A DNA stretch of 64,000 bases from Nannocystaceae bacterium ST9 (GTDB taxonomy: Bacteria; Myxococcota_A; Polyangia; Nannocystales; Nannocystaceae): NCBI GenBank assembly GCA_048320885.1, contig JBLWFJ010000001.1, positions 5,761,697 through 5,825,696 of the forward strand. The letters are read 5' to 3'. A program made the translations under genes and the position numbers. Within the stretch, counting starts at the first letter, position 1. The number at the start of each line of letters is the position of its first letter. The notes under the pieces are model-generated. The model was not told where the DNA came from and searched no databases. It saw nothing but the letters and a program-made list of their open reading frames with translations. Below are positions 33,258 through 36,252 of the stretch, one piece after another.

Positions 33258-34148
33258 GTGACCCGAGACGACCGAGCCGTCCTCGACTGGTTCATCGCCG
33301 AGGCCACGGCTGGCCTGCGGGTCAATCGACGGGCCGGCGTGTCGGCGGCGCTCAAGAAGCCGCTCTTGCTCCTGCTGGTGATCTCGCGCTTCGAGCAGCA
33401 CAGGCAGCGTGGCGCCCGGTTCTCGTTCTCCGAGCTGGAAGGCGAGCTCGCAGAGCTGATCAGCAGGTACGGAGGTCGAGTCGGGCAAGCCCGCCCGAAC
33501 CAGCCTTATCAATATCTCGATGGCCAGTGCGGGTGGACGGTGAAGATTCCCGACGGACCCGTCGGCCATGATCGTGATCTGCCCATGGGCGTGCTGCGGT
33601 CGCCGGGCACCTGGGCCGAGCTGCGCGCCGACGTGGCCACATTGCTCGGCACGCGGGCGGCTGCGCGAGTCGAGGCGGCGAACGCCATCCTCGCGCATTG
33701 GTGGCCCGACACGCGCCATTCCGAGATCCTACAGGCGCTGGGGCTGCCGGAGTCTGCCTCGGCCGCGCCGCGCAATTCGGAATTTCCCAAGCTCGTGCTC
33801 CGCAACTGGCGTGAGGAGTGCGCCTTTTGTGGCTTCGCTGCGTCGCTCGACGGTCGGGCGTTCGGCTTGGACGCGGCGCACATCCGTTGGCATTCGTTCG
33901 ATGGATCGGACGAATCCGACAATGGGCTCGCGCTCTGCAAGCTGCATCATTGGGCCTTCGACGCCGGCGCGCTGACCGTGAGCGGCGACCTGCGGATCCA
34001 GGTGTCGCCGGTCGTGGTCGGGCGCGAGGTCGGGGCGATCCAGGCGCTCGAGAGCCTGCGGGACCGCAGTCTTCCGATTCCACGAGACACCGCGCCTGCG
34101 GACGAGCACCTCGAATGGCACCGGGCCAACGTGTTTCTCGGGGATTGA
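33258..34148 (+). CDS. HNH endonuclease (HNH_2-type motif) with an uncharacterised N-terminal approximately 180-aa domain. Possibly a standalone restriction-like nuclease.
   Basis: CAFCGF...LDAAHIRWHSFDGSDESDNGLALCKLHHWAFDAGAL. It lies 34 bp downstream of the MVP gene. Confidence 0.7.
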   Translation: MTRDDRAVLDWFIAEATAGLRVNRRAGVSAALKKPLLLLLVISRFEQHRQRGARFSFSELEGELAELISRYGGRVGQARPNQPYQYLDGQCGWTVKIPDGPVGHDRDLPMGVLRSPGTWAELRADVATLLGTRAAARVEAANAILAHWWPDTRHSEILQALGLPESASAAPRNSEFPKLVLRNWREECAFCGFAASLDGRAFGLDAAHIRWHSFDGSDESDNGLALCKLHHWAFDAGALTVSGDLRIQVSPVVVGREVGAIQALESLRDRSLPIPRDTAPADEHLEWHRANVFLGD

Positions 34149-34170
34149 GACAAATGGTCCGTGCGGTCGC

Positions 34171-35544
34171 GTGAGCGCGATGGGTTACACCCGCCATCGT
34201 GGACTCGACTTGACATTCGCGTATTTCGACGCCATCATTCATGTGATGGTCGATTGTCTGGAATCCATCGAACACCTCGCCCGCCAGATCGCCGAACTCG
34301 CCTGCTGCATCGATACAGTCAAGCACGCTTGGCTCCGTCAAATCCGTGAATTCGACGCCCGCAATGGCTGGGCGGACACGGGCTGCGTCTCGATGGTCGC
34401 GTGGCTGGCCTGGTGGACGGGCACCAGCAACAAGACGGCCAGCGAGCATGTCCGTATCGCCCGGGCGCTCGGTGAGCTGCCTTTGCTCGATCAGGCATTC
34501 GCGGCCGGGGAACTGACCTATTCCAAGGTCCGCGCGCTCACCCGTACCGCTACGCCGGCCACCCAGCAAACCCTGATCGACGTGGCCAAGGCCGCGACCG
34601 CCAGCCAACTCGACAAGATCGTCGCTGGATTGCGGCGAGTCCGAGCTCACGCGAATCCCGAGCAGAGTGGCGGCGACCCGCCGCGCCGATTCGCCCGCGT
34701 CACCGAGACGCCGGACGGCATGGTGCGAATCGTCGCCCAGGTCGGGCCCGAGGAGGCGCTCATCCTTCGAGCGGCGATGGACATGGCGCAATCTCCCGCG
34801 GGAGATTCGACGCCTCCCCGCGCGGCCAACGACCCGCAATCTCCCGCGGGGGATTACGCCTCCGACCAAGCCGACGCGCTGGTCGCCGTCGCGCGGGGCT
34901 ACCTCGAGCGCAAGTCGACCACGCGTGGGACCGGCTTCGAGTTGATCATGATGACCACGCCCGAGCAGCTCGCCCACGGCCCCGAGGGGATCGGTGGATT
35001 CTTGCGCGATGGCACCCCCTTACCGCTGCATGTCGCGCGAATGCTGGCCTGCGACGCTACGCGGGTCGACGTGAGCGTCGGCGACTCGGGTGAGATCCTC
35101 GATGTCGGCCGTTCACGTCGAACCATCCCCACGGCGATCGGGCGGGCGTTGGCGCTACGCGACGGGGCCTGTCGCGTGCCCGGCTGCGGGCGCTCGCGGC
35201 ATCTGCAAGCCCATCACGTCGAGGCATGGGCAGAGGGCGGCGAGACCTCGATCTCGAACCTCGTGCTGCTCTGTCCCGGTCACCATGGCTTGGTCCACGA
35301 GGGCAAACTGCACGTCGAGGTTCGGACAGGCAAGCTCGAATTCATCAATGCCCACGGTGTGCCCCTCGCGCCTGCGCCGAGCCACAGCATCGATCCCGAG
35401 GCCGTCGCCGCTTGGCTCGACGCGGCCGAGCCCTCGGGCGAGCAGTCGATGGCGTGGGACGGGAGTCGGCTCGATCTTCACGAGGTGATCGGTTGGATGA
35501 TGCTGGCCGAGGGATTTCGAGCGGATGTGGGCGGGTGGGGATGA
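34171..35544 (+). CDS. DUF222 (REP13E12-type) HNH endonuclease.
   Basis: C-terminal HNH (CRVPGCGRSRHLQAHHVEAWAEGGETSISNLVLLCPGHHGLVHEG) after a long alpha-helical DUF222-like N-region. Local GC drops to about 55-60%. Confidence 0.7.
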   Translation: MSAMGYTRHRGLDLTFAYFDAIIHVMVDCLESIEHLARQIAELACCIDTVKHAWLRQIREFDARNGWADTGCVSMVAWLAWWTGTSNKTASEHVRIARALGELPLLDQAFAAGELTYSKVRALTRTATPATQQTLIDVAKAATASQLDKIVAGLRRVRAHANPEQSGGDPPRRFARVTETPDGMVRIVAQVGPEEALILRAAMDMAQSPAGDSTPPRAANDPQSPAGDYASDQADALVAVARGYLERKSTTRGTGFELIMMTTPEQLAHGPEGIGGFLRDGTPLPLHVARMLACDATRVDVSVGDSGEILDVGRSRRTIPTAIGRALALRDGACRVPGCGRSRHLQAHHVEAWAEGGETSISNLVLLCPGHHGLVHEGKLHVEVRTGKLEFINAHGVPLAPAPSHSIDPEAVAAWLDAAEPSGEQSMAWDGSRLDLHEVIGWMMLAEGFRADVGGWG

Positions 35545-35774
35545 TTGCACAGGGCTCATCTCGGCCCTCTTCGCGCTCGCTGACGAACGCACCATGCAGA
35601 TTTGCCGGCCCTCACCCTGCAACCGTGCATGGTGACATTCGCTCGTCACCTCTCAATCGACCCGACGCCGTCGAACTCGCGTATTCCCGCGATCCGAATC
35701 ATGCATCAATGCATGGTTCCACCCGACAATCGCCTCGCTTGACATCGAACCCTCACGCGACCGATCCTTGCGCA

Positions 35775-36191
35775 ATGAATGGCGACGAGATTCTCGCAGC
35801 ATTTCATCGAGTCCTGACGCTCAAAGATCGCGAGGTCTGCGCGGCCATCGACGCGGCGAATTGCCAGACCGCATACGATTGGCGCAAATCCCATGAAGCC
35901 AAGGACGCGCTCGCGGAGGCCGTCGAGCAGTTCGAGCAGACGATCGCCGCGCTCGCCCACGATCCTCCGATGATCACGCTTCAGGACGTGCTCGCGCGCT
36001 ACTCGAGCGCCGATGCGGCGAGCGTGAAGCAGGCCATCGACGCGATTCGCGAGAGCGAGCCGGCCAGGGCCATCGCTCGTCTGGCGAAGGTCGCGGAGGC
36101 GCGCGAGCAATTCTCGATCGCTTCGGAGCGCCAGCGCAGGACCCGGGAAGCGCAGGCAGTCGAGCGGCACGTGACCACCAGTACGCGGTGA
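35775..36191 (+). CDS. Hypothetical protein (139 aa) in a lower-GC region.
   Basis: ORF in the C-terminal frame of track ORF 35226..36191, starting at MNGDEILAAF. No recognisable motif. The upstream region is AT-richer and contains the ATGCAT-ca-ATGCAT repeat. Confidence 0.35.
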   Translation: MNGDEILAAFHRVLTLKDREVCAAIDAANCQTAYDWRKSHEAKDALAEAVEQFEQTIAALAHDPPMITLQDVLARYSSADAASVKQAIDAIRESEPARAIARLAKVAEAREQFSIASERQRRTREAQAVERHVTTSTR

Positions 36192-36252
36192 GGCAAGTCT
36201 CGCGCGAAGCCTCGTGCTTGGTGACGCGGCCGCGTCCTGCTAAACAAGCTCG

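Follow-up and report, generated by a model that had tools for sequence, protein, structure and literature searches.

Is the DNA directly downstream of the major vault protein (MVP) gene of Nannocystaceae bacterium ST9 a single acquired islet, or a set of features that are independent of one another? We addressed this question in a 64-kb window (the whole stretch of DNA analyzed, from a genome of roughly 9.8 Mb), in which an earlier note had described two different HNH genes and a small orphan gene as one low-GC islet and had read the whole 30.7-36.2 kb block, MVP included, as horizontally acquired. The three open reading frames (ORFs) were confirmed on the plus strand at 33258-34148 (296 aa), 34171/34246-35544 (457/432 aa), and 35775-36191 (138 aa), and a Pfam scan found HNH_2 in the first, DUF222 and HNH in the second, and nothing in the third. 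Over its entire length the product of the first ORF shows 100% identity to a protein encoded on a 6,975,145-bp contig of ST9, and this protein carries the NCBI name "phosphorothioated DNA-binding restriction endonuclease." The second product is likewise identical to an ST9 "DUF222 domain-containing protein" of 432 aa, which sets the annotated start at the ATG at 34246 (an in-frame GTG upstream, at 34171, would make 457 aa), and the third to a 138-aa ST9 "hypothetical protein." We consider it likely that these are three independent features rather than one acquired islet: a sulfur-binding domain (SBD)-HNH gene, one copy of a multicopy DUF222-HNH unit, and a conserved small gene at the head of the rsmD cluster.

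By fold, motifs, and family membership, 33258-34148 encodes an SBD-HNH type IV restriction endonuclease. The protein scored 191 bits against NCBIfam NF045808 (PT-DNA_restrict; curated cutoff, 180 bits), with residues 17 to 293 of 296 covered, and its precomputed Pfam assignment is PF26340 (DNA-SBD_ScoMcrA) plus PF13391. A profile built from 39 homologues and searched against the PDB matched the SBDs of Hga (8h0l), SprMcrA (7cc9/7ccd/7ccj), and ScoMcrA (5zmm/5zmo) over residues 4 to 164 (E values of 4e-15 to 6e-13). In the AlphaFold (AF2) model, which has a mean predicted local distance difference test score (pLDDT) of 92.6, the N-terminal domain gave target-normalized Foldseek template modeling (TM) scores of 0.73 to 0.81 with the SprMcrA SBD, 0.73 with ScoMcrA, and 0.70 to 0.74 with Hga, while the C-terminal half resembles the HNH domains of TagI and VcaM4I. 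Pfam HNH_2 covers residues 188 to 241, a domain that aligns with the TagI HNH. The protein retains the HNH residues H208, N222, and H231 as well as the zinc ligands C188, C191, C227, and H230. All seven are invariant among the 39 homologues except C188, which is nearly invariant. The N-terminal 180 aa had been taken for a novel domain: a Pfam set without PF26340 left the region empty, and a single-sequence PDB search matched only the TagI HNH. The NCBIfam, profile, and fold searches overturned that view and identified the known SBD of the ScoMcrA/SprMcrA type; SBD-like readers of modified DNA were among the folds that the earlier note had proposed looking for in this region. The note had also suggested that the first HNH protein could be a restriction nuclease dependent on DNA modification, and this agrees with the sequence assignment to the SBD-HNH, phosphorothioate (PT)-dependent type.

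Dependence on PT-modified DNA, and cleavage itself, are probable by homology. The cavity residues are H116, R117, Y164, P165, and A168 in ScoMcrA (PMC6224610), Y31, Q32, Y78, P79, and A82 in SprMcrA (PMC7470945), and H25, K26, L75, P76, and H79 in Hga (PMC10602919). Profile alignments place K33, K34, Q82, P83, and Y86 of the ST9 protein at the equivalent positions. K34 and P83 are invariant in the 39 homologues and align to K26/P76 of Hga and P79 of SprMcrA; the basic residue equivalent to R117 is Lys in most homologues. In ScoMcrA, P165 forms the cavity floor, and mutating the Pro or the basic residue (R117) most damages or abolishes PT binding (PMC6224610). The cavity His (H116) and lid Tyr (Y164) of ScoMcrA are replaced by K33 and Q82, and identity to the solved SBDs is low (17 to 23%). 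In the mechanism we propose, the SBD would dock on Rp-phosphorothioate links in incoming DNA, with the sulfur in a surface cavity that has P83 as its floor and K34 at its flank, and cleavage a short distance away would fall to the C-terminal HNH domain, with the enzyme probably acting as a dimer in the manner of EcoWI and SprMcrA. EcoWI and its relatives cleave a few bases from the PT sites to which they bind (PMC7461809).

Homologues of this gene occur in defense islands and on enterobacterial and rhizobial plasmids, the enterobacterial plasmid homologues being ~32% identical. A Planctomycetota-type homologue lies at L093 4497-16457 in a dense defense island with DarT/Macro, DUF4007 plus a PAPS-reductase-like gene, PglZ, and BrxL. 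In ST9, the ORFs scanned, which reach to within ~12 kb on the upstream side and ~10 kb on the downstream side, included no dnd, ssp, or other defense genes. The sole close homologue (73% identity; the next is 48% identical) is on a 1,086-bp metagenomic contig, L094, where the C terminus of an MVP homologue (90% identical over 31 residues) precedes the SBD-HNH gene with a 4-nt overlap; the gap in ST9 is 33 nt. A single blastn alignment crosses the MVP/SBD-HNH junction at 74% nucleotide identity (L094 1-983 versus window 33114-34141), and the L094 orthologue has a third-position GC content (GC3) of 0.79. For scale, rsmD and the adjoining aminotransferase are 81 to 86% identical between ST9 and its nearest relatives. 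The MVP-to-SBD-HNH pair thus looks vertically inherited within a clade, as judged from one short contig, and on this comparison the SBD-HNH gene is not a private ST9 insertion. The arrangement also suggests a conserved, possibly cotranscribed pair.

The second gene carries a DUF222 domain (PF02720; 82.1 bits versus a gathering threshold of 24.4) followed by an HNH domain (PF01844; 30.1 versus 21.4 bits) and belongs to a family of at least 30 ST9 paralogues on three contigs (6.98, 2.24, and 0.57 Mb). Clusters at least 85% identical to the window copy hold 27 distinct ST9 accessions, and at least three more fall in a 55 to 57% group. Pairwise identity among 23 aligned ST9 copies ranges from 87 to 95% (median, 91%), with none nearly identical, and most of the variation falls within the first 30 residues and the last 70. 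The HNH residues C309, C314, H323, H324, N338, C343, H346, and H347 are invariant in 53 family members.

Unit limits were derived from copies in other organisms, namely L089 to L091 (three loci of one metagenome) and L095 to L097 (three unrelated loci of the metagenome-assembled genome [MAG] GCA_031404295.1). DNA similarity between the window copy and L089, L090, L095, L096, and L097 runs from CTTGACA to the stop codon or at most 12 nt past it. The CTTGACA box, ~30 nt before the ATG, is conserved in all other copies read; among the MAG copies, similarity extends a further 13 to 34 nt upstream of it, giving a ragged left end. The box belongs to the sole sigma-70-like site found in 33000-36400, a promoter (34210-34238) whose position predicts transcription beginning on or immediately beside the ATG at 34246, and hence a leaderless or nearly leaderless mRNA. 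TTGACA boxes lie 28 to 31 nt before the ATG of both the DUF222 and the 138-aa genes (34210-34246 and 35739-35775), and likewise in L081, L087, L089, L090, and L094 to L097; the sequences suggest that leaderless mRNAs may be common in this lineage.

No terminal inverted repeats (TIRs) or target-site duplication (TSD) are shared among the DUF222-HNH copies read. A TIR candidate at 34188-34208/35517-35537 (71% complementary) was rejected since it is not conserved in other copies, as was the direct repeat ATCCACTC, which flanks the ORF in L095 and L097 and is absent from L096 and ST9. The unit therefore lacks the defined TIR and TSD that mark a transposon or insertion sequence. The earlier description of this gene as mobile and homing-like holds insofar as the family is dispersed and multicopy, and the proposed search for a TSD found none. 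From the ragged ends, the lack of terminal repeats, and copies that are diverged yet homogenized, we infer spread by recombination or gene conversion. The segment ~34209-35544 is one copy of a REP13E12-like unit that carries its own promoter and has multiplied to at least 30 dispersed copies in this genome. On our reading, recombination or gene conversion, perhaps begun by the nuclease that the unit encodes, would both spread and homogenize these copies, and transposase-type cut-and-paste would play no part.

Four of the seven copies read adjoin restriction-type or helicase genes: SBD-HNH in ST9 (window 33258-35544), type I HsdR in L090 (540-4152) and L095 (6001-10548), and a DEAD/ResIII helicase in L097 (3104-6272). 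The remaining contexts are purine biosynthesis, transporter, and kinase genes, and a sample of seven is too small to call the adjacency an association. Plasmid and phage collections contain almost no members of the family, PADLOC gave no match to it, and no prophage was seen beside the copies read. The DUF222 model is confident only for residues ~10 to 135 (mean pLDDT, 64), and that part weakly resembles the ParB/Noc DNA-binding domain (E values of 0.05 to 0.3), a possible lead only. ParB/Noc proteins bind palindromic sites.

A palindrome is present inside the gene. The perfect 18-nt sequence AATCTCCCGCGGGAGATT, which is joint longest among the perfect palindromes of the window, sits in a poorly conserved linker of the ORF. 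Its 14-nt core, TCTCCCGCGGGAGA, is found in every DUF222 copy read, usually twice, and perfect symmetry reaches 22 to 28 nt in other organisms (18 to 28 bp overall). The sites lie at L089 1936-1997, L090 3646-3704, L091 184-245, L095 6574-6587, and L097 5556-5569; in L096, where core sites lie at 4875-4888 and 5544-5557, a lone 28-nt copy is intergenic, ~113 nt upstream of the DUF222 start. Outside DUF222 copies, the core was found neither in the rest of the window nor in L001, L002, L081, L089 to L091, L094, or L095, and 2.9 million viral contigs gave no exact match to the palindrome. The palindrome encodes (Q/N)SPAG(D/E) with TCT, GGA, and AAT, codons whose shares of their families in the window are 2%, 5%, and 8%; because it is built from rare codons, the symmetry is kept at the DNA level. 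The two window copies can pair with each other (DNA fold z score, -4.5), and Rfam returned a subthreshold match only (25.9 versus 70 bits). One speculative reading, which we think quite unlikely, is that DUF222-HNH is a self-maintaining family in which DUF222 reads its own palindrome and nicks or breaks made by HNH promote gene conversion and duplicative spread across a set of more than 30 copies; the duplex recognized in that case may be GGCCAATTCTCCCGCGGGAGAATTGGCC. As a weaker addition to this idea, the MVP-to-SBD-HNH pair may reflect a functional link of a bacterial vault-protein homologue with DNA restriction.

The third gene appears to be native. We take 35598-36191 to be host DNA: it holds a small conserved gene, the first of the rsmD cluster, together with the region of its promoter. 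Five homologues of the protein (59 to 68% identity) were found among 5.8 billion sequences, with no Pfam, NCBIfam, PDB, or PHROG match. In every contig carrying the gene (L002 and L081 to L088), rsmD, the aminotransferase, and DAHP synthase follow it. In a profile search of a 1.84-billion-protein library, residues 1 to 60 (35775-35960) matched ~30 unannotated proteins of 58 to 89 aa (E values of 1e-10 to 1e-3). These N-terminal ~60 residues, whose matches carry no Pfam domain, may be a small undescribed domain.

The upstream DNA of the 138-aa gene aligns with L081/L002 from AGATTTGCCGG (~35598) onward. A hairpin at 35590-35634 (19-bp arms; RNA fold z score, -3.7), partly conserved in L081, could terminate transcription of the upstream gene or serve in regulation. 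Two ATGCAT sites separated by CA had been reported as a feature of the islet; they exist, 2 nt from the position first given (35699-35712), at 35701-35706 and 35709-35714, and they belong to the native promoter region of the 138-aa gene. The second of them and the TTGACA (35739-35744) are conserved in the L081/L002 alignment. ATGCAT is not enriched in the window (4 occurrences versus 6.4 expected), and two sites 8 nt apart would, by our estimate, be unlikely by chance.

Left of ~35598 the picture changes. Gene order shared with the nearest relatives is lost immediately to the left of this point, so the right edge of the variable DNA falls between the DUF222 stop (35544) and ~35598. There L081/L002 encode a 287-aa protein with an HxHxDH motif, and in L001, from a related MAG, the 138-aa gene is missing and a HIT-PLD (NgoFVII-like)-ResIII helicase fusion lies beside rsmD (L001 4-1338, minus strand). 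Because these relatives carry other genes left of ~35598, the neighborhood upstream of rsmD is a variable spot, and it seems to collect nuclease genes in this lineage; the L001 fusion resembles a defense or restriction gene. Comparison with sister genomes, as the earlier note had suggested, thus gave a divided answer: the 138-aa gene is in conserved synteny, and the area to its left is variable. A genome scan anchored on the aminotransferase yielded only two close relatives, on contigs of 3.7 to 4.7 kb.

The coordinates of the features are collected in Table 1. A 988-aa Ser/Thr kinase with TPR repeats (27212-30178), two genes upstream of MVP, matched many PADLOC PD-T4-6 kinase models (up to 8e-77); we did not take these matches to indicate a defense island, since they probably reflect generic kinase-domain similarity in a kinase-rich myxobacterium.

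Table 1. Features at and around the three genes (window coordinates)
Feature	Position	Strand	Evidence or remark
Peroxiredoxin, BCP type, AhpC/TSA family	30185-30658	minus	
MVP homologue, left neighbor of the SBD-HNH gene	30768-33224	plus	Pfam MVP_shoulder, 5e-28
SBD-HNH restriction endonuclease gene	33258-34148	plus	296 aa, GTG start; NCBIfam NF045808
SBD, residues ~4-164	33267-33749	plus	Profile search, Foldseek, PF26340
HNH (HNH_2) nuclease domain with zinc-finger Cys/His set	33810-34007	plus	Pfam HNH_2, 1.7e-10
DUF222-HNH repeat unit (own promoter plus ORF), one copy	34209-35544	plus	DNA similarity to other copies
Sigma-70-like promoter, TTGACA-17-CATCAT	34210-34238	plus	Promoter search
DUF222-HNH ORF, 432 aa as annotated	34246-35544	plus	Pfam DUF222, 5.7e-23; HNH, 5e-07
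Perfect 18-nt palindrome AATCTCCCGCGGGAGATT in DUF222-HNH linker	34790-34807	none	Encodes QSPAGD
Second palindrome copy, one mismatch	34838-34855	none	48 nt downstream of first
Native upstream region of 138-aa gene	35598-35774	plus	Aligns with L081/L002
138-aa lineage-specific conserved protein, first gene of rsmD cluster	35775-36191	plus	Five homologues
rsmD	36253-36831	plus	TIGR00095 RsmD, 2.4e-40
Aminotransferase, conserved right flank with rsmD	36828-38042	plus	81-86% identity in relatives (with rsmD)
DAHP-synthase-like gene	After aminotransferase		

The base composition of the segment is less unusual than had been thought. GC content had been put at ~55 to 60% over 34150-35800; we measured 65.7%, against a window mean of 69.4% (standard deviation of equal-sized windows, 1.6 points), which is within the lowest 1% of such windows. 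Across 33258-36200 it is 66.4%. Values of 58 to 60% are reached only in two ~300-bp stretches, ~34050-34450 and ~35450-35950, which contain the two lowest-GC 300-bp windows in the 64 kb (~35601, 58%; ~34051, 59%). Both stretches are promoter or intergenic DNA flanking the DUF222 gene, whose body is 66 to 71% GC. GC3 values for the SBD-HNH, DUF222-HNH, and 138-aa genes (0.81, 0.79, and 0.80) are the lowest in the window, yet within about 2 standard deviations of the 35 window genes (0.872 ± 0.042); the MVP gene, at 0.92, is host-typical. Tetranucleotide distance from the window average stays at z < 1 throughout 30-37 kb (MVP, -0.5 to 0.7). The windowed analysis called for by the earlier note thus showed GC only 3 to 4 points down, GC3 in the low tail, and normal tetranucleotide usage. 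The modest dip is the sum of two AT-richer promoter or intergenic stretches and the slightly lower GC3 of both nuclease genes. The most atypical tetranucleotide usage in the window is found elsewhere, at 6000-8250 (z up to 4.7) and 21000-23750 (z up to 4.3); the latter stretch also holds low-GC windows of ~60%.

These observations make it very improbable that the ~30.7-36.2 kb block, with MVP, both HNH genes, and the orphan, was acquired as one island. Such an origin would account for the lowered GC and GC3 of the three genes, for the patchy taxonomic spread of SBD-HNH with its drop in homologue identity from 73% to 48%, and for the different genes that L081/L002 and L001 carry left of the orphan or rsmD. 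It does not fit the host-like GC3 of MVP or the low tetranucleotide z scores across the block, and the MVP/SBD-HNH junction is conserved in L094, where the SBD-HNH gene has the same low GC3 of about 0.8. Wherever a relative has the orphan, this gene and its promoter keep their synteny with rsmD, which also removes the orphan from any common islet with the other two genes. Nor does the segment show the boundary marks of a genomic island or absence from relatives as one block: no tRNA was found in the window, no direct repeats or TSD mark an island, and no integrase is present among the 4 ORFs upstream of BCP (22011-30178), the 6 ORFs at 30185-36831, or the ORF at 38065-39309.

Two further alternatives concern the parts. 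DUF222-HNH could be a family of host paralogues that grew by duplication and is retained because it serves the cell, for instance in defense, perhaps with an adjacent restriction gene, and we regard this as possible though doubtful. No pair of the 23 aligned ST9 copies exceeds 95% identity, unlike recently active insertion sequences; the catalytic residues are kept in all copies, TIRs and a TSD were not found, the family is rare on plasmids and phages, and restriction-type or helicase genes adjoin four of the seven copies. Set against this, the unit and its own promoter travel into unrelated intergenic sites, the other contexts are housekeeping genes, SBD-HNH homologues elsewhere lack a DUF222 neighbor, and PADLOC does not recognize the family. 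It is unlikely, too, that the SBD-like domain reads another backbone or base modification, or plain DNA, as part of a different kind of HNH nuclease. The Lys and Gln in place of the ScoMcrA cavity His and Tyr, the distance from solved SBDs, and the failure of the single-sequence PDB search to retrieve them would be expected in that case. Yet the same two positions vary among proven PT readers (Y31 in SprMcrA, L75 in Hga; PMC7470945, PMC10602919), so neither position strictly defines the type; the floor Pro and the Lys, mutation of which abolishes binding (PMC6224610), are invariant, and the curated NCBI cutoff is passed.

Several points nevertheless weigh against three independent features as we describe them. 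With two of the four classically cited cavity residues changed, the ligand could differ, and the search for dnd and ssp genes covered part of a 64-kb window in a genome of roughly 9.8 Mb. Conservation of the MVP-to-SBD-HNH adjacency comes from the single 1,086-bp contig, and the ends of the DUF222-HNH unit in ST9 itself were taken from copies in other organisms. In L081 and L001, the nearest relatives on longer contigs, the genes to the left of the orphan or rsmD are different ones; either arrangement may be ancestral, and more than the DUF222 unit may have been inserted.

We compared the SBD-HNH protein with the PT-dependent endonucleases SprMcrA and EcoWI (PMC7470945, PMC7461809) and with the founding member, ScoMcrA (PMC6224610). 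It shares with the SprMcrA/EcoWI type an N-terminal SBD and C-terminal HNH in ~300 aa, the SBD fold (TM, 0.73 to 0.81), the cavity Pro and basic residue, and intact HNH and zinc-finger residues. It is also solitary, with no dnd genes in the ORFs scanned, as is typical of the family. It differs from that type in its Lys/Gln cavity, its myxobacterial host, and its position directly after an MVP gene, from ScoMcrA in having no SRA domain, and from solved SBDs and enterobacterial plasmid homologues in being only ~20% and ~32% identical, respectively.

The DUF222-HNH unit resembles REP13E12 of Mycobacterium tuberculosis in its DUF222-then-HNH order, in being a dispersed unit of ~1.3 to 1.4 kb that is essentially an ORF, in its diverged copies, and in having no known transposition mechanism; the M. 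tuberculosis loci are gene-conversion hot spots. REP13E12 has 7 copies in M. tuberculosis; the number in ST9 is far higher, at least 30. The ST9 unit is further set apart by its host, a member of the Myxococcota and not the Actinomycetota, and by the perfect palindrome conserved within the linker of every copy read. Nothing pointed to the (phiRv1-type) prophage attachment role that has been proposed for REP13E12, the palindrome being absent from viral contigs. REP13E12 (Gordon et al. 1999, as cited in PMC10589994) is a DUF222-HNH repeat with no defined function, and a 2026 preprint ranks it among the most frequently gene-converted loci (PMC13061034). Like free-standing HNH homing endonucleases, the ST9 unit has its own promoter, lies between unrelated genes, is multicopy, and looks selfish; unlike them, it lies outside introns, inteins, and phage genomes, and no recognizable empty target site was found. 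A further difference from classical homing enzymes is the large DUF222 domain at its N terminus.

The segment is thus ordinary in kind, consisting of an uncharacterized SBD-HNH type IV enzyme, one REP13E12-like copy, and a conserved hypothetical gene, parts that public annotation already names. The divergent myxobacterial SBD-HNH protein with its Lys/Gln cavity variant is of modest value and could widen the set of PT readers available for mapping PT sites. Only the DUF222-HNH expansion, with the palindrome inside its copies, might reward further study: a large expansion outside the actinobacteria, together with a palindrome that defies codon usage, is tractable for asking how REP13E12-type repeats multiply. 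If DUF222 does read its own palindrome, this would provide the first mechanistic handle on such repeats.

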